From Candidatus Omnitrophota bacterium (GTDB taxonomy: Bacteria > Omnitrophota > Omnitrophia > Omnitrophales > Aquincolibacteriaceae): a stretch of DNA of 64,000 nt. Positions within the stretch are counted from its first letter, which is position 1, and each line of letters opens with the position of its first letter. Location: positions 210,679 to 274,678 of the forward strand of contig JAKLIQ010000001.1 in assembly GCA_022709525.1 (NCBI GenBank), given 5' to 3'. This document shows, piece by piece, positions 8,030-23,296 of the stretch. The notes beneath the pieces are model-generated. The model was not told the origin of the DNA, made no database searches, and saw only the letters and a list, made by a program, of their open reading frames with translations. The position numbers and the translations under genes are program-made.

Positions 8030-8135
8030 GACTACAGCCGCAACAGAATTCAATTTCGTAAGTCGAATGGGCCGCAGGTTAATCATGCTTTTAAATAAAA
8101 TTTAAATTGATTTTATATTAATAATAGATTATTCT

Positions 8136-8217: not shown

Positions 8218-8228
8218 GGGAGAACATT

Positions 8229-8474
8229 ATGGAACACTTGAGTATTACTTTTCCGGAGACTTTGAAAGCCGCGCTTGATCTGGAAGCCAAGCGGGAGGGA
8301 ACGAAAAGGAGCACGCTTATTCAAAAGGCGGTGCTTATTTATTTGAAATTAAAAAAACAAAAAACCACACAGGATCTTCTCAAAGAAGGGTATCTGGAAA
8401 TGGCCGGCGAATCCGAGCGGCTTTTAAACGAATTCAAAGATCTTGATGCGGAGTCCTTCGGCTATGCCGATTAA
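8229..8474 (+). CDS. Ribbon-helix-helix (CopG/MazE-like) antitoxin
   Basis: 'MEHLSITFPETLKAALDLEAKREGTKRSTLIQKAV'. GGGGAG RBS. Overlaps the toxin start. Confidence 0.6.
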   Translation: MEHLSITFPETLKAALDLEAKREGTKRSTLIQKAVLIYLKLKKQKTTQDLLKEGYLEMAGESERLLNEFKDLDAESFGYAD

Positions 8475-8808
8475 ACGGGGGGACCTTTTTTGGGTCGACC
8501 TTGCCTCGACGCGGGGTTCGGAACAGGCGGGCCGGAGACCTGTACTGGTTATTCAAAATGATATTGGCAATGAATTTGCCCCGACGGTCATTGTGGCCCC
8601 CTTGACAACCAAAAGTTTTTCAAAAGACTATCCCACCAATGTTCATGTCCCGAAGTCGATTGGCGGACTAAAATCTGATTCCACGGTCCTTTTATCACAG
8701 ATCCGCACTCTGGATAAAAAACGTCTTGAAAAAAAGATCAGCCATCTTTCCGATACGTATCTTGAAAAGGTCAATCAGGCCATCAAAGTAAGTTTGGGGT
8801 TGGTCTGA
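8464..8808 (+). CDS. mazF: MazF/PemK-family mRNA interferase toxin
   Basis: 'RGDLFWVDL...GSEQAGRRPVLVIQND...PTVIVAPLTT'. Confidence 0.8.
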   Translation: MPIKRGDLFWVDLASTRGSEQAGRRPVLVIQNDIGNEFAPTVIVAPLTTKSFSKDYPTNVHVPKSIGGLKSDSTVLLSQIRTLDKKRLEKKISHLSDTYLEKVNQAIKVSLGLV

Positions 8809-8812
8809 CAGG

Positions 8813-9043
8813 ATGATGAAATTCTCAGTTACCGTCAAAACCCAGGCCAGGGAAAATCGCGTTGAAGAAGTAAGCCCGGGCGGATTGCGCGTTTGGGTCA
8901 AAGCGCCGCCGCGGGAAGGCCGCGCCAACGAAGCGGTGGTCGAAACGCTGGCGGCTTATTTTAAGGTCCCCAAAAGCCGGGTGGCCATTGTCGGCGGTTT
9001 TAAAAGTAAGACAAAAATTGTAGCAATCGGGACTCGGGACTAG
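8813..9043 (+). CDS. DUF167/YggU-family small protein
   Basis: 'VKAPPREGRANEAVVETLAAYFKVPKSRVAIVGG'. Last codons and the TAG stop lie inside a REP element. Confidence 0.7.
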   Translation: MMKFSVTVKTQARENRVEEVSPGGLRVWVKAPPREGRANEAVVETLAAYFKVPKSRVAIVGGFKSKTKIVAIGTRD

Positions 9044-9170
9044 TTCCTCGCCTGGTTCTCATGAATTTTTGACAGAAACCAGTGCAGTACCTGATAATCT
9101 TTTAAATTTTAAAGAAATCAAGCACGGGACTCAATAGAACGAGCCCCGAGTCCCCAGGGGCGAGTCCCCC
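9028..9170. repeat. Composite REP-like element: left arm 9028-9053 (CGGGACTCGGGACTAG...), AT-rich 70-nt spacer, right arm 9124-9170 (...GAGTCCCCAGGGGCGAGTCCCCC)
   Basis: Same GGGACT family; the arms form an inverted repeat. Confidence 0.5.
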
Positions 9171-9223
9171 GATTCTATTAAAAAAGAAAGTCTTATTTCA
9201 ATAAAGTTCGGTTAAAATAAGGT

Positions 9224-11575
9224 ATGTTCCGTCATTTCGCAGAATTCGTACATCATTTCCGGTGGCCGGTCCTTCTGGCTATCCTGCTAAGCGTCTTTAT
9301 CCTCGGGATGGCGGTCTTGCGTCTCCAGGTCGATCCCTCCATGGAAACCCTCTTCATCAAAAAATCCCCCGAATACCAGTATTACCAGCAATACCGCGGA
9401 AAATACGGCAGCGACCAGATGATCGCCGTCGCCATGGCCACCGACGATCTCTTCACGCCCGCAAATCTCCGGATCCTTAAAAGCATTACCGACGGGATCG
9501 CCAGTTACGGGCAAGTGGAGCGCGTGATGAGCCTCGCTAACGCCATGGATATCCGCCACAAAATGCTCGGCGTCAAAACCGTTCCGGCGCTGGAGGGGGT
9601 GTTCGAAGGGGAGCGTTCGATCGAAACCGTCAAAGAGGAAGTGTTGCGCAATGAACTTTATCTCAGCAACATTGTTTCCAAGAACGGCAAGATCGCCAAC
9701 ATCCTGGTTTATCTGAAGCCGGCGGAAAAGAACAGTGCGGCGGCCAACGGCGCCTTTATCGAGGAGCTGCGGGCCTATCTCGAGGATTTTGAAGGTCCCG
9801 GCGTGAAGTTCTACATGGCCGGCGCCCCGGTCGAGCAGTATGAATTCATCGATCTTATCCACCGCGACCAGATGGTGTTCGTGCCGATCATTACGGCGAT
9901 CCTCGTCCTCATGACGCTTTTGATCTACCGGAGCTTTACCTGTATGGTCCTTTCGATGTCGATCGTGTTTACGACGCTTATCTGGACGCTCGGGACGATC
10001 GCGCTTTTAGGGCAGGAGCTCAACCTGATGACGTCACTTCTGGCGCCCGTGATCATGATCGTGTCGGTGATCAATTCCACTTACCTCATCAATCTTTTCT
10101 TCGAGGTCCGGCCGCATCACAAAAGCTTGAAAGAAGCGGTAAGCGTCACGATCCAACAGCTCGGGATGCCGTGTTTTTTGACGCATTTTACGGCGATCCT
10201 CGGGTTCGGCTCGCTCGCTTTGAGCCCCATCCCGGCGATCCAAAGCTTCGGGATCTTTGCGGCACTCGGGACTTTCTATTCCTATATCGTCGAGCTGGTC
10301 ATGACGACGCTGCTTCTGCCGATCCTGCCGTACCGGATTCCGAATCCCGGCAAGGCGCCGGAAGGGCATTTTTTTAACCGAGTGCTTTTGGGATTTCTTG
10401 AGAAGCTTGAATTCCGGTGGAAATGGCTCATCCTCATCGTGACCGCGATCGTGCTCGCGTTTTCCGTCCAGGGGGTCCGGAAGCTTGAAGTCGATACGAA
10501 TATCGTTAAACAAATGAAGCCGAACCTGCCGCTCGCGGTCGCGACGCGGTTCATCGACGATAACTTGACCGGCGTTTATTCGCTGGGTTTTGTTTTCCGC
10601 CGCAAGGACGGAGAAAGCATCGTGGACGCCAAGACCCTGGGTCTGCTTGACCAGTTCAAAACCTACCTGGAAGGGGAGCCCGGGATCGCAAAGGTCAACA
10701 GCATCACGACGCTGGTTAAAAAGATCAATGAAGCGCGGCAGAACGACCCCGACGCTTACCGCATTCCGCGGAGCCCGATGATCCTCAATCTTTATTTCAA
10801 GGGCATGGCCCAGTCCAAGGATCCCGAGCTTTGGAAGCTTGTCTCGCCCGATTTCAAAGAAGTGCGCCTGGAAGCGCGCATGCGGGCGATCGGGACAACG
10901 CAGGGGGCGCTTCTGGAGGAGCGTGTCCGGGAATATCTGAAGACCCATATGAGCGATTTCTTTGAATACAAGCTGACGGGCAATGTGGTGCTTTTGGGCA
11001 AGATCGCCAAGAGTCTTGTGCATGAGCAGACGCAGAGCTTCGCGTTCGCTTTCGCCTCCATCCTGATCGTGATCGTGCTCATCTTCCGCTCGATCCCGCT
11101 GGGGCTCCTGGCGGCGGTTCCGAACGTTTTTCCGATCCTGACGGTTTACGGGATCATGGGGTTCGCGGGGATCGAGCTTTCAACGGCGACCGCTATGATC
11201 GCGAGCATTGTTCTCGGCCTTGTCGTAGACGCCTCGATCCAGTTTCTCTACCGGTTCCGCAAAGAGTTCCAGCACCGGTCGCATTATATCCAGTCCCTTC
11301 ACCACACTTACCGGAACATGGGCCAATCGATGGTGGTTTCGACACTGATCCTCTGCATGGGGTTTGCCGCGAGCGTTTTCGCGAGTTTCCGGATCACGGT
11401 GCATTTCGGTGTTCTGACGAGTCTTACGATCTTTCTGGCGCTTCTTTGTTCTCTTTTGGTGATGCCGGTGCTCCTGATCATGATGAAGCCGTTCGGCCCC
11501 CAGCGTCTTTTCAAACGCAAAGTCGCCGACAAAGACCCTTTGTACGCGGCCAAACATCCCGTCAAGCATGTCTAG
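9224..11575 (+). CDS. RND-superfamily / MMPL (HpnN-like) exporter with two 6-TM bundles
   Basis: 783 aa with two hydrophobic bundles and periplasmic loops; typical MMPL/SSD topology. Confidence 0.75.
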   Translation: MFRHFAEFVHHFRWPVLLAILLSVFILGMAVLRLQVDPSMETLFIKKSPEYQYYQQYRGKYGSDQMIAVAMATDDLFTPANLRILKSITDGIASYGQVERVMSLANAMDIRHKMLGVKTVPALEGVFEGERSIETVKEEVLRNELYLSNIVSKNGKIANILVYLKPAEKNSAAANGAFIEELRAYLEDFEGPGVKFYMAGAPVEQYEFIDLIHRDQMVFVPIITAILVLMTLLIYRSFTCMVLSMSIVFTTLIWTLGTIALLGQELNLMTSLLAPVIMIVSVINSTYLINLFFEVRPHHKSLKEAVSVTIQQLGMPCFLTHFTAILGFGSLALSPIPAIQSFGIFAALGTFYSYIVELVMTTLLLPILPYRIPNPGKAPEGHFFNRVLLGFLEKLEFRWKWLILIVTAIVLAFSVQGVRKLEVDTNIVKQMKPNLPLAVATRFIDDNLTGVYSLGFVFRRKDGESIVDAKTLGLLDQFKTYLEGEPGIAKVNSITTLVKKINEARQNDPDAYRIPRSPMILNLYFKGMAQSKDPELWKLVSPDFKEVRLEARMRAIGTTQGALLEERVREYLKTHMSDFFEYKLTGNVVLLGKIAKSLVHEQTQSFAFAFASILIVIVLIFRSIPLGLLAAVPNVFPILTVYGIMGFAGIELSTATAMIASIVLGLVVDASIQFLYRFRKEFQHRSHYIQSLHHTYRNMGQSMVVSTLILCMGFAASVFASFRITVHFGVLTSLTIFLALLCSLLVMPVLLIMMKPFGPQRLFKRKVADKDPLYAAKHPVKHV

Positions 11576-11713: not shown

Positions 11714-13234
11714 ATGTTCCATTCGAAAAAACTTATCCCTCTTCTCGCTTTAGTGCTTGTGGTTGGAACGGCCTTTGTGCTGTCCGGCTGCGCAAGTTGC
11801 TGCGGCGAAGCAAAATCCAAACCCGCTTCTACGGGCGGCGCGCTTCGCGGCGTGCTAGGGTGTGATGACTGCGAAAAATCCTCCAGTCCTCTTCACATCG
11901 AAAAAGAAATGCCGCGTCAGATCGTCGTGGGAAAACCCTACACTTATACGATCAAGGTCTCCAATGAATCCTCCTGTGTGTTGGAAGACGTGGTCGTGAA
12001 CGAAAGGGTCCCTGAGAAATACGAAATGCAGACCGCGACTCCCAAGCTGAGCAATGTGGCCGGGCGCGTCGCAACCTGGGATCTCGGCTATTTGAAAGCC
12101 GGAGAGACCAAAGTGATCACCATTACCGGTATTGCTTCAGATGCTAGCGCGACGACGGCTTGCACGACGGGCGATTATACCCCTGTCCTGTGCCTTAGCC
12201 CCGAGGCGATCTCCCCGAGCTTGAAAGTCGCTATCGAAGCTCCGGATCAGGCGCTCATCTGCGATACGATCCCGGTCAAGATCACCGTGACCAATAGCGG
12301 CACCGGTTACGCGCAGGGCGTTGTGATCACCCAAGCCCTTCCGAAAGGCCTTACCACGACGGACGGAAAGACCTCCGTCACGATCAATGTCGGGGACCTC
12401 GCGGGCGGCGCCTCCAAGGCGTTCAGCGTGAACCTCAAAGCCACGGAGACCGGTAGCTTCGCCAACAAGGCGAGCGCCGAGGCCTCTAACGGCTTGTCCG
12501 CTGCGTCCGGTTCCGTGACCACCGAAGTGAGCCAACCCGTGCTTAAGGTCAATATCGCGGGCCCGAGCAAGATCTTCGTTACGAAGAACGCGAACTATGA
12601 AGTGACGGCGCAGAACGTGGGCGATGCCGCTTCGGCCAATACCGTTGTGAGCGCGACCATTCCTTCGGGCATGAAATTTGTGAGCGCCACCAACGGCGGC
12701 GCCGCGGATGGCGGCAAAGTCGTATGGAATATCGGCACGCTTGAAGCCGGTAAGTCCGTGAAGCTCGGTATGACCTTGAACAGTGTGACCGGCGGCACCG
12801 GCGAAAGCGTTGCCAGGGCGACCGGTACTTGCTGCCAGGAAGCTGGCGCAAGAGTCCAATCCGATGTCCAGGGTATCCCGGCCATCCTTTTGGAGGTCAT
12901 TGATACCGAAGACCCGATCCAGGTTGGCGGAACGGAAAAGCTTTACATCACCGTGACCAACCAGGGATCCGCTCCGGATAACGACATTGTCGTGAAAGTG
13001 AAATTCGAAGAGAATCTCGACTATGTCGCCGCGTCCGGTCCGACGCCCGGAAGATCCGATGACGTCAAGAGCGTCGAATTCGCGCCGCTTGCGTCCCTCG
13101 GCGCGGGACAAAAAGCAACATGGGAAGTGACCGCGAAAGCGGCCAGTGAAGGCGACCATCGCACGACCGTTGTTATGACCAGCGATGCGATCAGCCGCCC
13201 CGTGCAGGAAACGGAAGCGACCCGGATCTACTAA
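11714..13234 (+). CDS. Cysteine-rich lipoprotein with DUF11/Chlam_OMP6-type repeats (OmcB-like), long paralog
   Basis: Lipobox 'LSGCASCCGEA'. Repeated Ig-like DUF11 units. C-terminus '...ETEATRIY' shared with the paralog at 22333. RBS CAGGAGG before ATG 11714. Confidence 0.7.
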   Translation: MFHSKKLIPLLALVLVVGTAFVLSGCASCCGEAKSKPASTGGALRGVLGCDDCEKSSSPLHIEKEMPRQIVVGKPYTYTIKVSNESSCVLEDVVVNERVPEKYEMQTATPKLSNVAGRVATWDLGYLKAGETKVITITGIASDASATTACTTGDYTPVLCLSPEAISPSLKVAIEAPDQALICDTIPVKITVTNSGTGYAQGVVITQALPKGLTTTDGKTSVTINVGDLAGGASKAFSVNLKATETGSFANKASAEASNGLSAASGSVTTEVSQPVLKVNIAGPSKIFVTKNANYEVTAQNVGDAASANTVVSATIPSGMKFVSATNGGAADGGKVVWNIGTLEAGKSVKLGMTLNSVTGGTGESVARATGTCCQEAGARVQSDVQGIPAILLEVIDTEDPIQVGGTEKLYITVTNQGSAPDNDIVVKVKFEENLDYVAASGPTPGRSDDVKSVEFAPLASLGAGQKATWEVTAKAASEGDHRTTVVMTSDAISRPVQETEATRIY

Positions 13235-13255
13235 GCCGAGGTCCTTGTTTTATGC

Positions 13256-13293
13256 AAAAGCGCCACGGATTTCTCCGTGGCGCTTTTGTTCTT
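13256..13293 (+). terminator. Rho-independent terminator (aagcgccacgga-tttc-tccgtggcgctt plus T-run)
   Basis: Perfect 12-bp stem followed by TTTTGTTCTTT. Confidence 0.75.
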
Positions 13294-13334
13294 TAAGGTT
13301 TCACAGCTTTTAACCATCCAATGAAAAGGGGAGG

Positions 13335-13517
13335 ATGTCCATGAACACCATTCTAGGTCTGATCGTTCTGGTGCTTGATATCATTGCGATTGTGGATTGC
13401 GTGAAAAGTTCCGTGGCTACGGGAAAGAAAGTCCTTTGGATCATTTTGATCCTGATCCTGCCGTTGATCGGTATGATCCTGTATTTCCTGTTGGGGAAGC
13501 AGAAAAAAGCGGCGTAA
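13335..13517 (+). CDS. PLDc_N-like small membrane protein (2 TM, YxlE-like)
   Basis: 'LGLIVLVLDIIAIVDCVKS...KVLWIILILILPLIGMILYFLLGK'. RBS AAAGGGGAGG. Confidence 0.55.
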   Translation: MSMNTILGLIVLVLDIIAIVDCVKSSVATGKKVLWIILILILPLIGMILYFLLGKQKKAA

Positions 13518-13541
13518 GCTTTTAAAACTCGCAAAACAAAA

Positions 13542-13580
13542 AAGGCCTGATCTTTTCAGATCAGGCCTTTTTTGTTTCCA
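13542..13580. terminator. Bidirectional terminator hairpin (aggcctgatc-ttttca-gatcaggcct) flanked by A- and T-runs
   Basis: Perfect 10-bp stem with a T-run 3' and an A-run 5'. Sits between convergent genes and abuts attR. Confidence 0.7.
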
Positions 13581-13588
13581 GATAAATC

Positions 13589-13605
13589 TGGGGAGTAGTG
13601 GATTC
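13589..13605. repeat. 17-bp direct repeat TGGGGAGTAGTGGATTC (attR candidate), identical to the 3' end of tRNA-Tyr at 21301-21317
   Basis: Exact 17/17 match; flanking bases differ on both sides. Confidence 0.6.
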
Positions 13606-13724
13606 CTAAAACCCCCTATACAAAAAACGCGCGCTCTTTTTCATATAGGAAAAATTTTCTTCGGTTTGTTTTCTTTCGTCTTTTTATGATCCTTTTTAGT
13701 CCCCAATCGGTCCCAGAAAGACAT

Positions 13725-14357
13725 TTAACTGAACTGCAAGCGCCTATCAAGACCAAGGTGTTGGAAACGAATCCCGGCTGCCCAGTCACTCACCTGAAAC
13801 ACTTCTGATAGTTTTTGTATCGTAATTAAGTGCACTGTTGTGAGAGGCGAAGAATCATGCGCTTCGTCCTGGAAAATCTCATTTGCCTTTTCTTCGAAAA
13901 GATGTGCCGGCATTAAAATAGCAGCGGCAAGATATTTTGCATTTTTATCCATGAGTCGATAAATCGCTGGATCCAAAGAGTCGTAAAGGTTCAGATAATC
14001 TTCTGGAGTTTTAACATTTTTGAAAAGGTCCTTATGTATGATTGCATGCGCTCCTTCCTCCGCCAGGGTAAAACGGTAGCGCCGCTCATTTGAATCAAGA
14101 TCCATAAACATAGGATCCATCCTGATCGCACGCCGGCTCAGGGTAATGTAAGCCTCCATACCGTAAAGGCGTTTCAAGGACTGGAATTCTATGATGGAGA
14201 TATCGAGATCCCTTTCCAGAATCAATTCGATATCGACAGGGATAGAATCGGGAGGTTTGTGAAACTGTTTTAAAAACTCTTCAGCTATCGCTTCTAACTC
14301 CCCAGTATTGTAAATGCGCGGATCTAAACTGGGTTTGTTAGGTTCCTTTGATGTCAC
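13725..14357 (-). CDS. ImmA/IrrE-family (DUF955) metallopeptidase-like protein with variant motif EEGAH in place of HEXXH
   Basis: 'FTLAEEGAHAIIH' aligns to ImmA 'FTLAHELGHLLLH'. Coupled to the upstream XRE gene by a 20-nt overlap. Confidence 0.55.
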   Translation of the reverse strand: MTSKEPNKPSLDPRIYNTGELEAIAEEFLKQFHKPPDSIPVDIELILERDLDISIIEFQSLKRLYGMEAYITLSRRAIRMDPMFMDLDSNERRYRFTLAEEGAHAIIHKDLFKNVKTPEDYLNLYDSLDPAIYRLMDKNAKYLAAAILMPAHLFEEKANEIFQDEAHDSSPLTTVHLITIQKLSEVFQVSDWAAGIRFQHLGLDRRLQFS

Positions 14358-14715
14358 GAATCAGCTGCCGGATTTGTTCTTTTGTGAGTTTTTCGTTTTT
14401 GATGGTTCTCGCCATTAACGGAAGTTCTTCCATTGCTTCGATCTCTTCAAAATACTCCTGAACATCGGCGGATATTTCGCCTTCCTTTGTGGCAAGGTCA
14501 AACAATTTCCCGTAATCTTGGTCCTTGTCTGACAGCCCCAATGCTGAAGCGATTCTTTTCAGAATTTCTGGCGCTCTAGGGGGGTTGGCTTTTCCGCACT
14601 CAATGTTACTCAGGTTCGACGGAAGAATCTCCACCACTTTGGCAAACGACCTCAAACCCAATCCTTTAGCGAGCCGTAGTTTTCGCACGAAACTGCCAAA
14701 TGTAGTTTTGCTCAT
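14338..14715 (-). CDS. XRE-family helix-turn-helix transcriptional regulator
   Basis: 'FGSFVRKLRLAKGLGLRSFAKVVEILPSNLSNIECGK'. Confidence 0.75.
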   Translation of the reverse strand: MSKTTFGSFVRKLRLAKGLGLRSFAKVVEILPSNLSNIECGKANPPRAPEILKRIASALGLSDKDQDYGKLFDLATKEGEISADVQEYFEEIEAMEELPLMARTIKNEKLTKEQIRQLIRDIKGT

Positions 14716-14823
14716 CTAGGTGCCCTCCTGTTATGAAGTATACATAACAGAACTACGGAAAACAAGGGCAAAACTTTAGTTTTTAATAGGGGTATTCTCG
14801 ATAGGAAATGCCGTAGAGCCAGG

Positions 14824-15339
14824 CTAATCTTGGATAGATTCGGCAAGCGGGACATGAAATGACAGGCTCACGAGCCCATATTGCGAAAAAGTCTCATCGG
14901 AAGATATCTTCTTGCCGTCAAAATAGGCCTCGGCCCGCAAGTGCGAACAGTCCGGGTTCTGGAGCTGACAGGTCATTGACATTATGTAGGGATTAGCGGC
15001 CAGCTGAAGTTTTGTTTTTTGGCGTTCTTCTTTGCTCTGGCTATTGGCCTCTCGAATTGTTTGATCGAACGAGGTAACAGTCACAAATGGCGTATGGTTT
15101 TCTCCGGAGAACCCCGTAGATCCTTGCCCTAAACCAATCCCCGAAAAATTGCAATTAATCTTATTAACTCCGCCCCAGCCCTGGTCGCTTTCAATGAGCA
15201 ACATCAACGAGTTTTTTGAATTCTGAAAATACGCCTGTTTTTCTGCGTCATGTGTTGCTCTGACATTCTGGTAATAGGCGCATCCGGACAGAGCCAGCAC
15301 GAGAAGCAATGCTGACAATCTCTTGATCGTGTTTTTCAT
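14824..15339 (-). CDS. Lipoprotein of unknown function (island cargo)
   Basis: 'MKNTIKRLSALLLVLALSGC' lipobox. GGAGAGGGGG RBS. The ORF-track start at 15438 is an upstream extension. Confidence 0.5.
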   Translation of the reverse strand: MKNTIKRLSALLLVLALSGCAYYQNVRATHDAEKQAYFQNSKNSLMLLIESDQGWGGVNKINCNFSGIGLGQGSTGFSGENHTPFVTVTSFDQTIREANSQSKEERQKTKLQLAANPYIMSMTCQLQNPDCSHLRAEAYFDGKKISSDETFSQYGLVSLSFHVPLAESIQD

Positions 15340-15485
15340 AATCCGCCCCCTCTCCAGCGATTTTATAGATTTCATCAGAATTTTTTGCTCGCATTTGGTC
15401 CAGGACGCGCGATCCGGACCTGCCAAGACATAAGGCATGACCCTCTTTCCGAGAAAGTCTGCTCCGCTTCGCGCGCCAAGTCAAG

Positions 15486-15525
15486 ATTGAGTGTAGCACT
15501 ACAGTCAATTGAGTTTAGCACTACA
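15486..15525. promoter_or_regulatory. Two 18-bp direct repeats ATTGAGTKTAGCACTACA, followed by palindrome GTAGCGCTAC, in a divergent intergenic region of the island
   Basis: 17/18 identity, 22-bp spacing. Related inverted copies at 19784-19827. Confidence 0.35.
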
Positions 15526-15671
15526 AAACATGTTGCGTAGCGCTACGCTATGCATCCCTTGGACGTCAATGCGAAGAATAAATTTACGGTGCCTCCGCAC
15601 AATGCGAAAATTTCCCCGCGACAAAGATTGATCCACAAGAAACTGAACATTGAAAAAAAGGAGAAAGATGT

Positions 15672-15938
15672 ATGAACAAGCAACCAACTGCTACTCACTC
15701 TATCCCCTCCGGATCCGAAACCACGGAAACAAACTCCATCTATGAGGCCGCTTACCTTTTGTGCCGGAATTTAAAACTTTGCAGAATGGACCGCAGCGGC
15801 GGCTCTAAAGTAACCTTTGTCTTTCAAGGAAAAGACGCCACTAAAAAGGCTAATGAATTCTTTAACGGCGCGAAGGTTGGAGCGCGTGCGTATTCAGATG
15901 CGGTCCGCAGCCTAAAAGACCGAATTTTTAAACGCTGA
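15672..15938 (+). CDS. Hypothetical small protein (island cargo)
   Basis: ORF with RBS 'aaaggagaaag'; no confident family call. Confidence 0.4.
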   Translation: MNKQPTATHSIPSGSETTETNSIYEAAYLLCRNLKLCRMDRSGGSKVTFVFQGKDATKKANEFFNGAKVGARAYSDAVRSLKDRIFKR

Positions 15939-15964
15939 TCCACTAACCAGGAAGATGGTGGGTT

Positions 15965-16891
15965 ATGCGCGAAGAGAAAAATGATTCAGGAGAGAAGCAG
16001 CATTTTTACATGCTCGAAGCCAGGCACGCGGAACTGGTCGAGTTGGGAAAAATCTCCCTTGAGGATCTTGGCGCCCTTTCCCTCATGGGGTGCAATATCA
16101 ATCCTCACAATGGATACATGATAACCGGGCATAGCGATTATGCCGGAAGGGCAAATATTAAACCGTCCCAAGCGCGCTATCTTTTCGAAAAACTTGAGAG
16201 CGCCGGGCTTATCCGTTTTTTACTTCTCCAGCGCGGGCGATACAGTAAGGGATTGCTGTTTGTAATGGGCCGGAAGTTGGCTGGAGGCATGACGGTTAAC
16301 GATGAATTTGTTTCAAAAACAGCCAAAAAACGAGGCGTTTTTTCCGAATTGGAAAGCGACTTTCCGAATAAGAAAATTACCGAAATCCCCTCTACGGACA
16401 CTCTAGAAGTAAATGACGGATTCCGAATTGACCGAGAGGGAGAGGGAAAGGAGACGGAGACAGAAAGGGAGAGGGATAACGAGCCAATCCTTATTAAAGC
16501 GCCAAGGCTCACCATGGAAATAGCAAAGCATCCCCTTTTTAAACGCATCACGGAAGCGAATTGGGATCTCATTTACAAGAAATACGAATATGCTTGGCTA
16601 GATAACAAACTTCAGGACCTTGCTGGACGGCTTAATAAGGGACCTATATCTTTCGATCGATTGAATGGAATGCTCCAAGATGACTGGACCCAGCGAAGGC
16701 CAGCAAAAGATTATCGTCGCGAGGATGAGAAACAAAAAGCCGATATGCGCCAATGGGCCGCAGATCAAAAGGCAGACGAAGGGAAACCAGATCCGGAGTG
16801 TTTGATTGAGTGGCGAAAGAAGCGTGATCGCATGAAAGGATCGGGGACAACCGAAGCAATGACTGAAGCCGGCGCTGGTGAAAGCACATGA
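15965..16891 (+). CDS. Hypothetical protein with winged-helix-like N-terminal region and acidic ER-rich tract (replication-organizer-like?)
   Basis: 'ARYLFEKLESAGLIRFLLLQRGRYSKG'. Low-complexity 'EGEGKETETERERDNE'. Confidence 0.4.
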   Translation: MREEKNDSGEKQHFYMLEARHAELVELGKISLEDLGALSLMGCNINPHNGYMITGHSDYAGRANIKPSQARYLFEKLESAGLIRFLLLQRGRYSKGLLFVMGRKLAGGMTVNDEFVSKTAKKRGVFSELESDFPNKKITEIPSTDTLEVNDGFRIDREGEGKETETERERDNEPILIKAPRLTMEIAKHPLFKRITEANWDLIYKKYEYAWLDNKLQDLAGRLNKGPISFDRLNGMLQDDWTQRRPAKDYRREDEKQKADMRQWAADQKADEGKPDPECLIEWRKKRDRMKGSGTTEAMTEAGAGEST

Positions 16892-17148
16892 GTAAAGAAT
16901 ACGAGCTTGATAAGCGGATCTTTGACTTTGGGATGGATTGTCTCGAAGGTGCATTCTGTGGCAAATTCAACCGGACCGCTTACTGGCGCGAAGTAAAAGA
17001 AATGGGATCGTTTGAATTTATGCGCGGGATTGAGTTTGTCGTCAAGACGGTAACTTTTGGTGATGGCCTCATACCATACAAAATTCGAAAAGGTGGCAGA
17101 CTTAAGACGTGTGCTTTTTGCAAAGGACTAACAGAGGGAAAAGGATGA
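16888..17148 (+). CDS. Hypothetical small protein
   Basis: Translationally coupled ORF chain; several Cys. Confidence 0.3.
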   Translation: MSKEYELDKRIFDFGMDCLEGAFCGKFNRTAYWREVKEMGSFEFMRGIEFVVKTVTFGDGLIPYKIRKGGRLKTCAFCKGLTEGKG

Positions 17149-17366
17149 AACGGCTAAAGCGCTGGCTTGTCTCGGTGTTTAAGGATCCGCCAAGAGGCCG
17201 GAAGGATCCGAAGCCGTGCGGCATGGGCCCGGAGTGCTCATTTTGGGACTGGTGCAAAGAAACAGATTTTAAGAGGCTTCCAGGTTCAAGAGACCGCAAA
17301 TGCTATGTGGAGACATTCCTTTCCTCGATGAAGGAGACTACCGGTAAACAACGCGCGAAGCGGTAA
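17145..17366 (+). CDS. Hypothetical small basic Cys-containing protein
   Basis: Overlaps the previous stop (ATGA). 'MKRLKRWLVSVFKD...CGMGPECSFWDWC'. Confidence 0.3.
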   Translation: MKRLKRWLVSVFKDPPRGRKDPKPCGMGPECSFWDWCKETDFKRLPGSRDRKCYVETFLSSMKETTGKQRAKR

Positions 17367-17426
17367 CCATAAAATTATACGATTTATATGTAATAAAAAA
17401 GGACAGGGAAAAGGATAAATGAAGCC

Positions 17427-17660
17427 ATGGGCGGCGAGGACCGGAGGGAATACTTCGCGCATTTCAGGCAGTTCGACAAAGACGGACAAGAGTCAGATCT
17501 TTTTAACATGGTCGCGTTCTTTACTTACTTCGATCACAACTGGGAAAGTTCGGGAGCGAATTTTCGAAACCGTCCGCTGACTGTTAAACCCGCGCATGAG
17601 GTCAAATGGAAGCTCGGTAAAGGCGAGGAAAATAACAACTGGACGAGGACCTATTGTTGA
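17427..17660 (+). CDS. Hypothetical small protein
   Basis: ORF with RBS 'ggaaaaggataa'. Confidence 0.3.
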   Translation: MGGEDRREYFAHFRQFDKDGQESDLFNMVAFFTYFDHNWESSGANFRNRPLTVKPAHEVKWKLGKGEENNNWTRTYC

Positions 17661-17759
17661 GCGGAAAAATATCAAGGAATAAGTTGATTTTTAAAACGCT
17701 CCAATGGAGAATCTTACCCAAGAAAAGCATTTTGTAGGGACAGAAGAAAGAAGTTTGTT

Positions 17760-19253
17760 ATGGCAGTAGATACGCAAGCAAGTATCATTTTGAGGCTCAA
17801 GGATGAGTTCTCAAAAAATCTGAAATCCGCAGGAAATAATTTTCAATCCTTCGCGCGCCAAATTGACCAAGCCGGCGCATCTATTACCCGGACCGGGATG
17901 AAGATGGTGGCCGTAGGCACCACTATGAACGCCCCCTTTTTCGCCGCCGTAAAGACGATGGAGAAGTATTCTTTTGCCGCTCAAAACGAGATGAGACGCC
18001 TAAACAATGAGTTTGTTGCTCTATCAAAAACAATCTCCGAAGCGGCTTTACCCACGATCCGGCAATTCAATGACAACTTCTCTAAACTCATAAACGGGCT
18101 TAAAACCTTGGATCCGGCTCTGCTTCAAAATATCGCGCACTGGTCAATGGTGGCTGGGCAAATTTTGATCGTTGCCGGGACGCTCGAGATATTTATCGGA
18201 AAAGTGATAAGCCTAATCGCGAAATTGGGCCATTGGGGGAGGACGCTAGTTATCTTTAGCGGTGGGGTAATTCCCGGACTTATCGCAGTGATCGGAGGAC
18301 TAATCTTTGCCTGGATAAAATTTCACGACCAATTTGTCCTGGTTGTGGATTCCTTGCGGTTTTTATGGCTTCAATTTTGTGATTCCCTTATGGCCGCATG
18401 GCAAAAGGTCCTGCAGATCATTTCAAAGGTTCCGGGCGCAAATAGTTTTGCGGCGCAGGTGGACCAGCTGACGATTGCTAGACAAAAACTTAAACAGGAA
18501 ATGAACGCACTCGCAAGTGGCGGAAACTCGGAATGGAGTCAGCAACTTCAAAATTTTTCCAATCAAATCCAAAAGGCCGTTGCCGGATTCCAAAAGAGTT
18601 TTAACAGCGCCTCCCAAAACGTCGAGACTGTCATGCGGGATATGAAATCTAGAATTCAAGATACCGCCTTTTCGCTTTCAGATGGGTTTGCCGATGCGTT
18701 CGATAGGGTCTTGTTCGAAGGTGAGCGATTTGGCAATTCGATGAAATCCCTCTTTGCAAATATGGGCCGCAGTATTTTAAAAGACTTCGTTTCCACGGTT
18801 GGAAAGAACCTCTTTGGAGCTATTTTAGGGACCTCCGGCACAAACTCCGGATCCGGAATAGGTGGCCTTGCTGCCGCCGGCCTTGGGTCGTTCTTTGGCC
18901 CAATAGGGACCGGAATAGGCGCTCTTTTTGGAAGCCTCTTTAAATTCCACGAGGGAGGGGCTATTTACGCTCATGCCGGCCTTGCCCCTGATGAGGTGCC
19001 AATAATCGCCCAAACAGGCGAAGGAGTGCTTTCCAGGCGCGGAATGGCAACCATTGGCGGATCCGGGAACCTTCGCGCACTTAATGCGGGGCAATCTCCG
19101 GGAGGCCAAACTGTTGTAATTAATCTTACACAGGTGATTAAGGCATGGGATTCACAAGACGTTTACAGAAATCGCAAAGCGTTTACCGCAGCCATCGAAG
19201 AAGACATTATGAATAATGGCCGGATCCGTAATGCGATCAAATCCTACGGCTGA
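17760..19253 (+). CDS. Phage tail tape-measure-like protein (coiled coil, TM hairpins, Gly-rich segment)
   Basis: 'GSGIGGLAAAGLGSFFGPIGTGIGALFGS'; C-terminal '...HEGGAIYAHAGL..DEVPIIAQTGEGVLSR'. Confidence 0.4.
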   Translation: MAVDTQASIILRLKDEFSKNLKSAGNNFQSFARQIDQAGASITRTGMKMVAVGTTMNAPFFAAVKTMEKYSFAAQNEMRRLNNEFVALSKTISEAALPTIRQFNDNFSKLINGLKTLDPALLQNIAHWSMVAGQILIVAGTLEIFIGKVISLIAKLGHWGRTLVIFSGGVIPGLIAVIGGLIFAWIKFHDQFVLVVDSLRFLWLQFCDSLMAAWQKVLQIISKVPGANSFAAQVDQLTIARQKLKQEMNALASGGNSEWSQQLQNFSNQIQKAVAGFQKSFNSASQNVETVMRDMKSRIQDTAFSLSDGFADAFDRVLFEGERFGNSMKSLFANMGRSILKDFVSTVGKNLFGAILGTSGTNSGSGIGGLAAAGLGSFFGPIGTGIGALFGSLFKFHEGGAIYAHAGLAPDEVPIIAQTGEGVLSRRGMATIGGSGNLRALNAGQSPGGQTVVINLTQVIKAWDSQDVYRNRKAFTAAIEEDIMNNGRIRNAIKSYG

Positions 19254-19258
19254 CACGA

Positions 19259-19747
19259 ATGACAGACCAGAACCCACCCCAAGCAACGGACCAAGCAATA
19301 CCTCCTCCGTTGCCGAAACGCAGGCTTAAAACACAAACCCGGAAGATGCTGGCTGTTCTTCGCGGGATTGCAAAGGGAAATACGATCTCGCTCGCTTGTG
19401 AGAGCGCTGGGATTACCGCGATGACATTCTGGAACTGGCGGAAGAAGTGGCCGCGCATTTCTGCATTAACCGAAAGCCTTATTGCGAGCAAAATTCAAGC
19501 GGTAGAGGATAAACTTTTTAATCAGTGCGTTAATGGCAATATGACAGCCATCATCTTTTTTCTCACGAATCGATGCCCGGAGCGCTGGTCCGATCGACGC
19601 GCTTTGGTAAACAATACGAACGTCTTTAACGCGCGAAACGCGCCAGCTAAAGATGAGTCCAAGGAAAGCGTCGAAGCGATTTTTTCCAGAATTGAATCGA
19701 TACGCGCATCATTGATCCCACCGGACGGCACAAAACAACTTCCCTAG
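19259..19747 (+). CDS. Phage terminase small-subunit-like HTH protein (COG5484-like)
   Basis: 'LRGIAKGNTISLACESAGITAMTFWNWRKK' and 'MTAIIFFLTNRCPERWSDRRAL' resemble terS proteins of alphaproteobacterial prophages and GTAs. Confidence 0.45.
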   Translation: MTDQNPPQATDQAIPPPLPKRRLKTQTRKMLAVLRGIAKGNTISLACESAGITAMTFWNWRKKWPRISALTESLIASKIQAVEDKLFNQCVNGNMTAIIFFLTNRCPERWSDRRALVNNTNVFNARNAPAKDESKESVEAIFSRIESIRASLIPPDGTKQLP

Positions 19748-19885
19748 GTTCCGGGATTTTTAGAGGGCGGGCAAGTAAAGCGCTTTAGTTTAGTGGTAAA
19801 GTAAAATGGTTTAGTTTAGTGCTACAGTTCAATTCGGCGACAGGAAGGGCTGGATTCTCGGAAGTATCCAGAACGGCAGAACGAC

Positions 19886-20056
19886 TTAAACGGTCGCTAC
19901 AAAAGCCTCGATGCTCGCAAGCGTCTTGCGGTCCTTTTTGGGAAACCCGCCAAACTTCATAGCCTCAAGCCCAATCTTAAGAGCCGAGCGGATGAGTTGA
20001 TATTTAGTTTTGCTGATACAAACGCATTCTTCGTTTGCCTGTTTCTTCGCCTTCAT
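19886..20056 (-). CDS. Small ORF (56 aa), possible excisionase/AlpA-like; overlaps the integrase 3' end
   Basis: Perfect AAGGAGG RBS 7 nt upstream. 'MKAKKQANEECVCISKTKYQLIRSALKIGLEAMKFGGFPKK...'. Below the ORF-track cutoff. Confidence 0.25.
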   Translation of the reverse strand: MKAKKQANEECVCISKTKYQLIRSALKIGLEAMKFGGFPKKDRKTLASIEAFVATV

Positions 20057-21179
20057 GTTTGTCCTCCTTGTTTTTGGTCGTCCCTCGTTCCCCTGGTAAT
20101 ACGTTCAATTTCTCTACTGCTTCGCGCAAGTGTCCCGGCGTTTGATGTGCATAGATAAGCGTGGTTTGGATATTGCTGTGTCCCATAAGGGTTTTGACTG
20201 TGAAGGCGTCTGCGCCCCGCATAAGGAGCTGGCTGGCAAAAGTATGCCGTAGGGAGTGAACTTGCGTTAGATCGTAAATGCCGGCGTTCTGCGCTATCCG
20301 TATGAGGTCTAGCCGGAGTTGGTTGCCACTTATGGCATTGCCGTTCTTATCCGGGAAAACGAAATGGCTTTGACGCGGAAGGCCATCGAGCACAGCGGCC
20401 ACTGCTTCGGACATTGGTATTTCACGCTCGCCGGTCTTGGGAACCCAAAAGTCTTTGCGCTGGATCTTGATAACACGGTGTTTAAAGTCGAGATCTTTCC
20501 ATTCGAGATTCAGAAGTTCTCCCTTTCTCATCCCGGTATGGACCATGACAAAAAAGACCGGATAAAATTCGGGCTCACACGCGCGAAGTAGACGGCCTAT
20601 TTCCGCATCCGTCAAAAACCTTCTTTGCTTTGCATCATCGGCTTTCAGAAAACTAACGTCCCGGACCGGGTTTTCATCCAAAAACTTTTGCTTAATGGCA
20701 AGGTTGAAAATCGTGCGGAGCGTGCCGATCTCGAAATTAACCGTATTTGACTTCGCGCCCTTCTTAATGGTCGTTTTCTTCGTCAGAGGGCCCTTCTTGC
20801 CGTTCTTTGAAACTGGGGCACTCTTACGGTGCTGTTTGAACTTTTCGATCAGGGCGGGCGTTATATCGCGCAAACAAGCCACTTGGGGGACCGTCTTTAG
20901 AAACTCAAGGAAGTTGCTTACGGCGGAACGATAGCGGACGGTCGTAGCCGGCCTGTGATTCGTTTGGGAGTATTTCAGATAATCTTCGAGGAAGGTCTTG
21001 GGATCTGCTTGTTCTTGGTCGAGGAAACCTAGCTGGTTTCGCTCGTCTTTTACTTCGTGATCTTTCAGGGCGAGCTCGGCGATTTTCTTATCCCGGCTTA
21101 CTCGCTTGCGGTATCTTCGACCATTCTTCAGGTAAAGATCGATGTAATACCACTCGCCGCGCCTTCGGATAGTGCCCAT
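20004..21179 (-). CDS. int: Tyrosine site-specific integrase (phage integrase family)
   Basis: 'HSLRHTFASQLLMRGADAFTVKTLMGHSNIQTTLIYAH' (R..HxxR..Y). Adjacent to the tRNA-Tyr 3' end. Confidence 0.9.
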   Translation of the reverse strand: MGTIRRRGEWYYIDLYLKNGRRYRKRVSRDKKIAELALKDHEVKDERNQLGFLDQEQADPKTFLEDYLKYSQTNHRPATTVRYRSAVSNFLEFLKTVPQVACLRDITPALIEKFKQHRKSAPVSKNGKKGPLTKKTTIKKGAKSNTVNFEIGTLRTIFNLAIKQKFLDENPVRDVSFLKADDAKQRRFLTDAEIGRLLRACEPEFYPVFFVMVHTGMRKGELLNLEWKDLDFKHRVIKIQRKDFWVPKTGEREIPMSEAVAAVLDGLPRQSHFVFPDKNGNAISGNQLRLDLIRIAQNAGIYDLTQVHSLRHTFASQLLMRGADAFTVKTLMGHSNIQTTLIYAHQTPGHLREAVEKLNVLPGERGTTKNKEDKHEGEETGKRRMRLYQQN

Positions 21180-21300
21180 GCTTTTTCCCTCATCTGGTCT
21201 GGTTTTGGTCCCTAAACGGTCCCAAGTCCTACATGAGGGATTCTAGCGTGCACTTAATTCATTGTCAAACAAGCATTTACAGCATCACTCTAAAAAAGAG

Positions 21301-21384
21301 TGGGGAGTAGTGGATTCGAACCACTGAAGGCTAAAAGCCAACAGATTTACAGTCTGTCCCCTTTGGCCGCTCGGGCAACTCCCC
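21301..21384 (-). tRNA. tRNA-Tyr (anticodon GTA), long variable arm, CCA not encoded
   Basis: Hand-folded: GGGGAGT acceptor, ACAGA/TCTGT anticodon stem with loop CTGTAAA, AGTGG-TTCGAAT-CCACT T-arm. Confidence 0.85.
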
Positions 21385-21469
21385 GTGTCGGACGGGAATA
21401 TCAAATTCCCGCCGGACACGCACTTGCGCAATGAGCGTAAGTGCATAAGATCAAAATCATATCAAAATC

Positions 21470-21541
21470 AGCTGGTGGAGGGATTTGAACCCCCGACCCG
21501 CTGTTTACAAAACAGCTGCTCTACCCCTGAGCTACACCAGC
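21470..21541 (-). tRNA. tRNA-Thr (anticodon TGT)
   Basis: Hand-folded: GCTGGTG acceptor, GCTGT/ACAGC anticodon stem with loop TTTGTAA, GGGGG-TTCAAAT-CCCTC T-arm. Confidence 0.8.
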
Positions 21542-21885
21542 AAAAACGAAATCTTACCATGACAAAGAACGCCGAGTTTTATAACCCCTGTCCGCCTGAA
21601 GGTATCTTTCAGGACGGATCCGTCCTCCGCATGGATTTCTGCGGAGGCGGAAGCTACACCAGCACTGATTCTCATTTTAATTAAAAAATCAAATGTTTCC
21701 AAGCCGATATCAATAGAAGGATCCGATCGAAAGCGCGTCATTCTACAAGAATCCCCGTCAAAAATAAAGCGGGCAAAATTTTCAAAACATCTTGACCCCA
21801 TCTCCTCATAGGCGTAGACTAAAAACGCTGTTCTCTTGAATGCGAAAATTTTTCAACCTGCACCGCAAAAAAAAAGGAGAAGGCC

Positions 21886-22251
21886 ATGAAGAAAATGATG
21901 ATTTTTTTCCTGATCGCAGGATTATTTTTGGCGCCAATGACGGGCTTCGCGGCCAGTCCTTGGACGCAGGAGGATAATTACAACGATCGCATGTCGGGGA
22001 AGTTGCGTTTTGGCGTGATCAACACCCTTTTTGGCTGGACGGATATTTTCTTTGAGCCGATCAAAGGGGCGCGCAAATGCGAATCCTGCGATAGCGTCTG
22101 GACAGGTATCGGGAAAGGTTTCACGGATGCCGTAGTCAATGAAGTGGGCGGCGCTTTGCAGCTGCTGACCTTCCCTCTAGTATTTGATATACCGCTTCCC
22201 GATGATGGCGTCCAATTCGCCACGTGTTGCGGTTGCGGTTCTTCGAAGTAA
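21886..22251 (+). CDS. Small secreted protein, paralog family A, with Cys-rich C-terminus 'ATCCGCGSSK'
   Basis: Signal peptide. Conserved 'W..E..Y..K.KL.FG..N..GW...EP......G.GKG....N.VGG....FP...D.PLP' shared with 38377 and 38726. Confidence 0.55.
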   Translation: MKKMMIFFLIAGLFLAPMTGFAASPWTQEDNYNDRMSGKLRFGVINTLFGWTDIFFEPIKGARKCESCDSVWTGIGKGFTDAVVNEVGGALQLLTFPLVFDIPLPDDGVQFATCCGCGSSK

Positions 22252-22332
22252 TTTAATCGCATCGCTGAATAGCGTGCCCCGCGTTGGCGGGACACGCTAT
22301 TCGTGTCTTTGCCTTTAACAAGGAGGTTAGAA

Positions 22333-23187
22333 ATGAAGAGAACGGTGGCGAACATTTGTGTTTTAGTTTTCATGGTCGCGATCGCTTTTGCCCTTTCCGG
22401 TTGCGCGTCCTGTTGCGGAGAGGCGGCCCCAGCGAAGGCCCCTGCAACCAAGGGAATGCTGCATGGAACGATCGGATGCGATGATTGCGAGCTTTCCTCC
22501 AGCCCATTGAGGGTTGATAAGGAAATGCCGGGCCAGGTCGTGGTCGGGAAGCCCTATACCTACACGATCAAGGTCACCAACGAGGCCTCCTGCGTTCTTG
22601 AGGATGTCGTCGTGATCGAAAGGGTTTCCGAGGGCTACAAGATCGAATCCGCCAATCCTTCGGCGACCAAGGTTTCCGGCCGCGTTGCGGAATGGGATAT
22701 CGGCTATCTGAAGCCCAACGAGACCAAAGTCATCACGATCACGGGAGTGGCATCCAGCCCCAGCGCGACAACTTCCTGCACGAAAGCCGATTATAACCCG
22801 GTGCTTTGCCTCGGTCCGGGGGTGGGGATCCCGGCGATCCTGCTTGAAGTGGTGGATACCGAAGATCCCGTCCAGGTTGGCGGAATGGAGAAGTTCTATG
22901 TGATGGTAACGAACCAAGGAAATGCCGTGGATTCGGATATCGTCGTGAAAGTGGATTTTGAAGAAAATTTTGACTATGTGTCGTCGGGCGGTCCCACCGC
23001 GGGCAAGGCGGAAAGCGCCAAAACCGTTACGTTCGCTCCTCTAGCCGCTTTGGCCCCCGGGCAGAAAGCGACATGGGAAGTGACCGCGAAGGCCGTTTCG
23101 GAAGGGGATCATCGCACCTCCGTGAAGTTGACAAGCGATGCGATCCAGCGTTCCGTCGACGAAACTGAGGCGACCCGGATCTATTAA
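22333..23187 (+). CDS. Cysteine-rich DUF11/OmcB-like lipoprotein, short paralog
   Basis: 'LSGCASCCGEA' lipobox. N- and C-terminal domains homologous to 11714..13234; ends '...ETEATRIY'. RBS AAGGAGG. Confidence 0.7.
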   Translation: MKRTVANICVLVFMVAIAFALSGCASCCGEAAPAKAPATKGMLHGTIGCDDCELSSSPLRVDKEMPGQVVVGKPYTYTIKVTNEASCVLEDVVVIERVSEGYKIESANPSATKVSGRVAEWDIGYLKPNETKVITITGVASSPSATTSCTKADYNPVLCLGPGVGIPAILLEVVDTEDPVQVGGMEKFYVMVTNQGNAVDSDIVVKVDFEENFDYVSSGGPTAGKAESAKTVTFAPLAALAPGQKATWEVTAKAVSEGDHRTSVKLTSDAIQRSVDETEATRIY

Positions 23188-23244
23188 GCGTCATTGCGTT
23201 AGCAATCCGGTACGAAGTTCCATGAGATCTTTCATGGGATGCTG

Positions 23245-23296
23245 AAAAATGGGCACGCCGTTCCTCCCTGGGAAGTTGGCGTGCCCATTTTTTTTG
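23245..23296 (+). terminator. Rho-independent terminator (atgggcacgcc ... ggcgtgcccat plus T8)
   Basis: 11-bp stem followed by TTTTTTTT. Confidence 0.7.

Follow-up and report, generated by a model that had tools for sequence, protein, structure and literature searches.

Do the lipoproteins encoded at this locus belong to the family of the chlamydial outer envelope protein OmcB, and is the small cysteine-bearing protein encoded beside one of them their partner? The window (i.e. the whole stretch of DNA that was analyzed, 64,000 nucleotides from a Candidatus Omnitrophota bacterium) carries on its plus strand the genes for a long lipoprotein of 506 amino acids (11714-13234), a short paralog of 284 amino acids (22333-23187), and a small secreted protein of 121 amino acids with five cysteines (21886-22251). 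All three were taken from the list of open reading frames. The lipoproteins were assigned by Pfam, BLASTP, and a lipobox rule, the long one in addition by hhalign and an AlphaFold2 (AF2) model; assignment of the small protein used a weak match to TIGR04073 and an AF2 model. An initial annotation, made from the sequence alone, had likened the arrangement to the chlamydial order of a small cysteine-rich gene followed by omcB and had proposed a disulfide-cross-linked envelope or adhesin module. The three reading frames were present where it had placed them, the long protein having 506 rather than 507 residues, and the chlamydial gene order was confirmed on real loci. As set out below, sequence comparisons strongly support homology of the long protein to OmcB over its whole length. 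We put at about 60% the probability that the two proteins are OmcB-family envelope lipoproteins of an old superphylum family which, with the small protein as a thiol-linked partner, form a lipid-tethered envelope layer analogous to that of OmcA and OmcB.

Architecture of the two lipoproteins

Both N termini consist of a basic n-region, a hydrophobic core, and a lipobox, and both passed a PROSITE PS51257-style rule. In the long protein, the signal peptide and lipobox (VLSG-C26) are followed by Cys29 and Cys30 and then by G-C50-DD-C53-E; in the short protein, the lipobox (ALSG-C24) is followed by Cys27 and Cys28 and then by Cys49/Cys52. The cluster that had been noticed in both proteins (LSG-C, C-C, and GCDDCE) is therefore real, with C-C at positions +3 and +4 after the lipid-modified cysteine and G-C-D-D-C-E about 20 residues further on. 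The mature short paralog retains seven non-lipid cysteines, an odd count. The alanine at position +2 points, by the Escherichia coli sorting rule, to tethering in the outer membrane.

Downstream of this region, the long protein comprises four Ig-like domains (approximately residues 58-165, 166-275, 276-385, and 386-506) of the DUF11 family, now renamed CLIPPER (PMC12617251). The repeats claimed for both proteins were recovered by Pfam PF01345, which matched four times in the long protein (144 bits, E 3e-42) and twice in the short one (75 bits, E 6e-21), in both cases above gathering, and TIGR01451 of NCBIfam also matched the paralogs. The AF2 model of the long protein, built from a 98-sequence alignment (pLDDT 89.6), was all-beta with four beta-sandwich domains spanning approximately residues 43-506 and a disordered stretch of 40 residues at the N terminus. 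Searched against the Protein Data Bank (PDB) with Foldseek, this model retrieved only generic tandem Ig stalks (integrin legs, PrgB, and antigen I/II) at low TM-scores. Sequence searches of the PDB with the single protein and with the 98-sequence profile found no structure of the family; there were weak CARDB-like matches only (3idu and 2kl6), and no significant alignment was obtained to 9IFR.

The paralogy of the long and short proteins is evident from BLASTP (E 5e-70 and 5e-66). The short protein consists of the N terminus plus domain 1, 64% identical to residues 1-165 of the long protein, fused in frame to domain 4, 72.7% identical to residues 386-506. Domains 2 and 3 are missing, excised exactly at the domain boundaries, as the annotation of two absent internal repeats had implied. 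Both proteins end in ETEATRIY, as had been said, but the description of their C-terminal domains as near-identical was overstated (73% at the protein level and 70% at the DNA level). Because domain 4 shares only 72.7% of its residues and 70% of its nucleotides, the short/long pair is not a recent duplicate. At least five other lineages (P0059, P0071, P0078, L005, and L048) have short-type proteins of 264-286 amino acids, and in a neighbor-joining tree of domain 4, calculated without bootstrap, they form one clade, sister to the clade with the long protein of the window. There is modest sequence evidence that the short paralog is a maintained gene; an AAGGAGG ribosome-binding site lies 7 nucleotides upstream of it. 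A Candidatus Omnitrophota metagenome-assembled genome (MAG) encodes a protein 100% identical to the long one, and other Omnitrophota MAG records contain matches to the small and short proteins.

Homology to chlamydial OmcB

The OmcB probe was a Chlamydia trachomatis sequence 91-93% identical to real entries. It retrieved named OmcBs from many Chlamydiae, including that of C. pneumoniae (P0154), and the conclusions rest on the retrieved sequences. BLASTP aligned the long protein with C. pneumoniae OmcB at 30% identity over 493 amino acids (E 1e-60) in one collinear block, which ran from just past the signal region to the final residue and placed ETEATRIY opposite DTENTHVY; for the short protein, domain 4 aligned (E 5e-24). 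When 28 non-chlamydial sequences were compared with 18 chlamydial ones by hhalign, the probability was 100% (E 3.8e-70) over 445 columns, extending to the last column of both alignments. The Pfam model Chlam_OMP6 (PF03504) scored the long protein at 36.5 bits (gathering 34.1), in a match overlapping a stronger DUF11 match, and the short protein at 14.2 bits. NCBIfam has no OmcB-specific model, and real OmcBs match TIGR01451 only. The motif (D/E)TE(A/N/S)T.(I/V)Y stood at the C terminus of both window proteins, of 80 of the 105 non-chlamydial full-length matches, and of 62 of the 88 chlamydial ones. The resemblance to OmcB suspected from the sequence is, on these comparisons, strongly supported as true homology over the whole long protein, beyond generic DUF11 repeats.

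A basic heparin-binding motif at the N terminus gives chlamydial OmcB its adhesin activity and is a feature of Chlamydiaceae (PMC2229832). The corresponding pattern XBBXBX was not found in the window lipoproteins, where basic residues make up 6-12% of the linker, and the adhesin side of the annotated module is accordingly unsupported. The window proteins are members of the OmcB family by homology, but they do not carry its functionally defining features, namely high cysteine content, an OmcA partner, and the heparin-binding motif.

The family outside Chlamydiae

Homologs with 38-81% identity were found in Omnitrophota, Phycisphaerae/Sedimentisphaerales, other Planctomycetes, Lentisphaerae, and Sumerlaeia, and members of the family measure approximately 500-590 amino acids. 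By a strict rule, 68 of 105 non-chlamydial homologs possess a lipobox, and more carry a sequence of the L-P-G-C type. Beside the lipobox cysteine, four cysteines (Cys150, Cys160, Cys183, and Cys373) were invariant in all 25 sampled non-chlamydial members; they sit at the junctions of domains 1/2 and 3/4. The anchor-proximal CxxCC...CxxC, on the other hand, is specific to one Omnitrophota subclade, Phycisphaerae having GCYSCQSW instead. OmcBs of environmental Chlamydiae begin with a lipobox-like L(A/S)SC and continue with a very cysteine-rich stretch: L(A/S)SC-NRNWCDC... in P0181, P0192, P0193, and P0228, and LSSC with a different cysteine-rich stretch in P0238, to be set beside LSGC-ASCC...GCDDC in the window. 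Because environmental OmcBs start in this way, the layout with a lipid anchor and a cysteine linker seems to be the older one, and the basic heparin-binding N terminus of Chlamydiaceae appears to be derived.

In the one planctomycete and the one Lentisphaerae genome that were examined, no conserved neighbors of the family gene were found, and it appears to be monocistronic in both. Some of these proteins have already received the label OmcB or DUF11 by automatic annotation, one Omnitrophica homolog being named "OmcB precursor". Earlier comparative work had described OmcB as specific to Chlamydiales save for one weak, cysteine-free planctomycete match, a 907-residue protein of Rhodopirellula baltica that was the sole non-chlamydial match in 2006 (PMC1403754), and orthologs of chlamydial outer membrane proteins have been mentioned in a general way for the superphylum at large (PMC2811131). 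Beyond these remarks of 2006 and 2009, searches of the literature gave no description of the family outside Chlamydiae.

The small five-cysteine protein

The small protein carries a signal of the signal peptidase I type (GFA-ASPW) and no lipobox. Its five cysteines, again an odd number (4.1% of residues), are arranged as C65-E-S-C68 and, in the tail ATCCGCGSSK, as C114-C115-G-C117. In the AF2 prediction, residues 32-62 and 71-94 form a helical hairpin whose loop contains CESC, and the tail is extended. No Pfam family matched at E ≤ 1, hence none to Chlam_OMP3 (PF03503). As a homolog of OmcA the protein was rejected: it has no lipobox and no Pfam match, and BLASTP against the real C. pneumoniae OmcA gave an E value of 5.1. 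The comparison with an 88-residue cysteine-rich lipoprotein encoded upstream of OmcB in an environmental Chlamydiales MAG gave an E value of 0.33. Thus, the part of the annotation that described a secreted 121-residue protein ending in ATCCGCGSSK directly before the short paralog held, whereas its likeness to the small chlamydial lipoprotein did not extend to homology or to a lipid anchor. The 88-residue lipoprotein itself (L055, 2523-2789) contains 14.8% cysteine and is not recognized by the Pfam OmcA model; in Protochlamydia, "OmcA" was likewise annotated by position and cysteine content only, as remarked in 2006.

At E ≤ 0.001, the wider family of the small protein comprised 196 representative clusters of small signal-peptide proteins. 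The NCBIfam model TIGR04073 matched residues 36-98 of the window protein with 27 bits (E 3.6e-6) and ten distant relatives with 16-25 bits, the cut-off being 50; the small protein is at best distantly related to TIGR04073 by sequence. Two tandem cysteine-free relatives of 121 and 145 amino acids (phmmer 70 and 52 bits) are encoded at 38377-39133 of the window, so this genome carries both subtypes of the family.

Linkage of the small gene to OmcB-like genes

The small-protein family is split by its cysteines. The CxxC insertion and the CCxC tail occur together in nine lineages and are both lacking from 28 cysteine-free genome loci; judged from this distribution in the sequences, the five cysteines were gained together. 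In six of the nine lineages, the five-cysteine gene lies directly upstream of an OmcB-like lipoprotein gene, four times of the short type (the window, L001/L006, L004, and L049) and twice of the long type (L050 and L005, the L005 contig ending inside the lipoprotein signal peptide), with otherwise different neighbors. No OmcB-like gene lies within 6 kb of any of the 28 cysteine-free relatives (Fisher p = 3.6e-5). The gene order in L050 is MMPL, small, long, PLDc_N, and the window has the same order (MMPL, long, PLDc_N) without the small gene. The synteny that the initial annotation had expected in relatives was therefore found in six lineages and was missing in three: linkage of the five-cysteine gene to OmcB-like genes is significant, not universal. 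It suggests a partnership between the small protein and the lipoproteins.

Three other loci deserve mention in this context. In L017 (5995-9274), L027 (5875-9245), and L029 (5749-9369), all from other Omnitrophota, pairs of cysteine-free small proteins are encoded just upstream of a TonB-dependent receptor gene, and this position hints that the small-protein family as a whole accompanies outer-membrane proteins. Downstream of the small and short genes in L004 (5518-11793), three radical-SAM enzymes, a PqqD-like protein, an S24 peptidase, and two open reading frames of approximately 64 amino acids form what looks like a peptide-modification cluster, probably unrelated to the OmcB-like pair. A divergent gene for a LysR-family regulator stands upstream of the small and short genes in L001 (8522-9409) and L004 (1607-2485), at the place that tRNA genes occupy in the window.

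Scans for consensus promoters and terminators gave counts close to what shuffling predicts and were uninformative; hairpins were found by folding instead. A promoter-like site lies 5' of the small gene. Between the small gene and the short paralog, an RNA hairpin (22263-22305, plus strand; -36.1 kcal/mol, z -5.1) is followed by a weak T tract; it is possibly an attenuator or an mRNA stabilizer and was absent in the relatives L001, L004, and L049, i.e. not conserved. L050 has a terminator 3' of the small gene, and L049 has a 47-nucleotide gap without a hairpin. Co-transcription of the small and lipoprotein genes is possible, not assured. Folding also revealed intrinsic-terminator-like structures on the plus strand after both lipoprotein genes, a hairpin with a T8 run after the short one (23244-23293) and a 16-bp hairpin after the long one (13254-13289).

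Proposed module and alternative explanations

According to the reading that we favor, the family is an old one of lipoproteins of approximately 500 amino acids in Omnitrophota, Planctomycetota/Phycisphaerae, Lentisphaerae, and Chlamydiae. Each member would consist of a flexible, often cysteine-bearing linker at the lipid anchor and a rigid rod of four CLIPPER (DUF11) domains that ends in an ETE(A/S)T..Y strand. A gene duplication in this lineage, with loss of domains 2 and 3 from one copy by an exact in-frame deletion, would have produced two rods, one long and one short, that have in common the anchor-proximal cysteine cluster (C-x-x-C-C ... C-x-x-C) and the terminal domain. The small protein would be a secreted helical hairpin, of which one subfamily acquired the CxxC loop and the CCxC tail together, and its thiols may join the anchor-proximal cysteine cluster of the lipoproteins by a mixed disulfide or a shared metal. 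Once joined, the proteins would make up a lipid-tethered layer of the outer envelope. In function it would be an analog of the OmcA/OmcB complex of Chlamydiae, although its small subunit is not homologous. We infer the structural envelope role and the thiol-mediated partnership (disulfide or shared metal); disulfide cross-linking of the lipoproteins with the small protein is presumed. Odd thiol counts, seven non-lipid in the mature short paralog and five in the small protein, imply that at least one thiol of each is unpaired within its own chain.

Several observations weigh against this reading. Cysteine content is 2.2% in the long and 3.2% in the short protein, as compared with 4.4-10.7% in chlamydial OmcBs, and the only window cysteines aligned with chlamydial ones are Cys373 (ten of ten sampled OmcBs) and Cys160 (five of ten), so that the label "cysteine-rich" given to these lipoproteins did not hold. 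The five-cysteine gene stands alone among housekeeping genes in three lineages (L007/L042, L008, and L009/L045), and no small gene precedes the long paralog of the window or the long genes of L047 and L048. A strong hairpin or terminator separates the small and lipoprotein genes in the window and in L050; co-transcription is not required. Confidence in the AF2 model of the small protein is low (pLDDT 66.6), and the location of the lipoproteins follows from Ala+2 via the E. coli sorting rule only. Gain of the CxxC loop and CCxC tail as a pair would fit an internal disulfide or metal site in the small protein equally well. Omnitrophota, finally, are largely anaerobes, in which stable periplasmic disulfides are less certain.

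These points lend themselves to another explanation, in which the small protein is functionally unrelated to the lipoproteins, its adjacency to them is a lineage-specific accident, and its cysteines stabilize the hairpin through a disulfide or metal site within the protein. This would account for the three lineages in which the gene is alone and for its own promoter-like site and the hairpin or terminator ahead of the lipoprotein gene. In the model, moreover, CxxC lies in the hairpin loop, onto which the 27-residue tail could fold back, and because cysteine-free relatives adjoin TonB-dependent receptor genes in three loci, the family may be a general envelope accessory. Inherited gene order alone, however, is a poor explanation for an adjacency that recurs in six of nine lineages with different flanks and before both short- and long-type genes; the 28 cysteine-free relatives never show it, and five thiols, being an odd number, do not all pair internally. 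We regard an accidental adjacency as possible but rather doubtful. A metal-based alternative holds that the clusters (CxxCC...CxxC and CxxC...CCxC) bind metal and that the module is a lipid-tethered periplasmic or surface device for metal handling or redox sensing. By our own reading of the sequences, two CxxC-type motifs approximately 20 residues apart have a zinc-ribbon- or rubredoxin-like spacing; the cluster region is disordered in the AF2 model, as apo metal sites often are, and the doubt about disulfides in a mostly anaerobic phylum favors this explanation too. No metal-binding family matched in Pfam or NCBIfam, however; among close homologs in which the remainder of the protein is preserved, the cluster is variable or missing, and the first cysteine of the first motif is lipidated and unable to act as a ligand. 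A metal or redox device is, in our judgment, quite improbable.

That the lipoproteins are generic DUF11/CLIPPER fibrillar-adhesin stalks without a specific relation to OmcB might be supposed because DUF11 is widespread in surface adhesins (PMC12617251), because Foldseek returned generic Ig arrays, and because the short paralog fell below the Chlam_OMP6 cut-off. This supposition is refuted by the collinear BLASTP and hhalign alignments, the former a single block through all four domains to the last residue. The C-terminal motif and lipobox layout that the window proteins have in common with environmental chlamydial OmcB speak against it as well, as does the four-domain length of approximately 500 amino acids, which is fixed across phyla without an adhesion head domain; its probability is negligible.

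The favored reading, OmcB-family lipoproteins with a thiol-linked small partner, may be carried a step further. OmcB might be ancestral to Planctomycetes, Verrucomicrobia, and Chlamydiae, unrelated small cysteine partners having been recruited independently, and in that case the Omnitrophota trio might represent a second outer membrane complex of independent origin. The ancestor of OmcB before Chlamydiae would have been a lipid-anchored envelope protein with four Ig domains in the common ancestor of the superphylum. OmcA in Chlamydiaceae and the five-cysteine TIGR04073-like hairpin in Omnitrophota would be separate recruits, each pairing giving rise to a thiol-linked proteinaceous envelope layer. 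We offer this extension tentatively and consider it unlikely in its entirety.

Gene context and the integrative element

Upstream of the long paralog, the plus strand encodes an MMPL/RND-type transporter of 783 amino acids with a sterol-sensing-like domain (9224-11575; Pfam MMPL, E 1.6e-37). It is a conserved upstream neighbor, and the order MMPL-then-long recurs in the relatives L047 and L050. Downstream of the long paralog follows a PLDc_N small membrane protein of 60 amino acids (13335-13517, plus strand), which is also present in L050. A MazF/PemK toxin gene (8443-8808) lies between the genes for a dTDP-sugar epimerase and the MMPL transporter (window 8142-8808), and an open reading frame of 110 amino acids that overlaps it upstream may encode the antitoxin.

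The gap of 8.6 kb between the paralogs is mostly taken up by an integrative element of 7.7 kb (13589-21317, unstranded), which was identified by its direct repeats, integrase, and tRNA-Tyr target. Exact direct repeats of 17 nucleotides lie at 13589-13605 and 21301-21317, their flanks being unrelated, and the second copy is the 3' end of tRNA-Tyr (21300-21384, minus strand). A tyrosine integrase gene (20004-21179, minus strand; Pfam Phage_integrase, E 2.5e-32) adjoins this tRNA gene. An integrase beside a tRNA gene together with repeats that duplicate the tRNA 3' end marks a tRNA-targeting tyrosine-integrase element. At its opposite end, the element encodes an XRE-HTH and ImmA/IrrE-like pair (13725-14715, minus strand); it also encodes a DUF5659 protein and a 497-residue protein (17760-19253) with only a weak ApoLp-III match, which is perhaps tape-measure-like. 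This small element resembles a satellite or remnant. Both tRNA-Tyr and a tRNA-Thr gene (21470-21541, minus strand) are situated between the element and the small gene.

Without the element, approximately 0.9 kb would separate the long gene from the small and short pair. That the long and short genes were an ancestral tandem pair was considered and found to be unsupported: in the closest relative, other genes lie 3' of the long paralog and the short pair is on a separate contig. Because the long gene has other downstream neighbors there, its proximity to the small and short genes in the window is not ancestral. In the relative L048, by contrast, short-type and long-type genes are in tandem; the stretch 7961-11515 of that locus encodes a 331-residue protein consisting of an autotransporter beta-barrel only, a 264-residue short-type protein without the usual cysteine cluster, and the long paralog. 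Elsewhere in the window, G+C content is markedly lower at 2001-6000 (0.37) and 62001-64000 (0.43) than in the remainder (approximately 0.53), and these parts may be acquired DNA.

Significance and comparison with known systems

The full-length, OmcB-sized homologs in free-living Omnitrophota, Planctomycetota, and Lentisphaerae, whose lipobox layout recurs in environmental chlamydiae, provide a concrete ancestral form from which the cysteine-rich chlamydial protein could have evolved. They are also material from non-pathogens for studying the OmcB fold, for which sequence searches found no solved structure. The recurring link to a non-homologous five-cysteine small protein offers a case in which convergent recruitment of partners can be tested. 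Practical impact is modest, the functional role being inferred and some family proteins already carrying automatic OmcB or DUF11 annotations.

With OmcB, the window proteins have in common full-length homology, the same four Ig-like domains in the same order, and the same C-terminal ending; with environmental chlamydial OmcBs, they also have the lipobox followed by a cysteine-bearing linker. In both systems, a small cysteine-containing exported protein is encoded just upstream. The window proteins differ from OmcB in their lower cysteine content, the lack of an XBBXBX region, the presence of a two-domain paralog, and an upstream protein unrelated to OmcA, and their host is a free-living or episymbiotic Omnitrophota bacterium rather than an intracellular chlamydia. 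OmcA (Chlam_OMP3, the 9-kDa cysteine-rich lipoprotein) and the 88-residue lipoprotein of the environmental Chlamydiales MAG resemble the small protein in being small, exported, and cysteine-bearing and in being encoded directly upstream of an OmcB-family gene. These two contain 15-17% cysteine as compared with 4.1% in the small protein, which has no lipobox and is a predicted helical hairpin; unlike chlamydial OmcA, it shows the linkage to the OmcB family in only six of nine lineages. The exosortase-system-associated proteins of TIGR04073 are like the small protein in size, signal peptide, and the weak but consistent HMM match seen in all ten distant relatives tested, whereas only the subfamily linked with OmcB-like genes has the five-cysteine loop and tail.

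The CLIPPER domains of fibrillar adhesins (crystal structure 9IFR, PMC12617251) belong to the same Pfam family and have the same tandem beta-sandwich Ig-like fold as the window lipoproteins. This fold is CnaA-like, and its intramolecular Lys-Asn isopeptide bond, with a catalytic Asp/Glu, is present often but not in all domains (PMC12617251). The window proteins have only four or two such domains, no adhesive head, and no sorting domain except the lipobox, and they carry conserved cysteines at domain junctions. The R. baltica protein is, like the window proteins, a non-chlamydial OmcB relative from the same superphylum, but it was reported to be cysteine-free, longer, and similar to OmcB in its C-terminal part only (PMC1403754). 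The window family, in contrast, is collinear with OmcB over the whole length, is of OmcB size, and has conserved cysteines.

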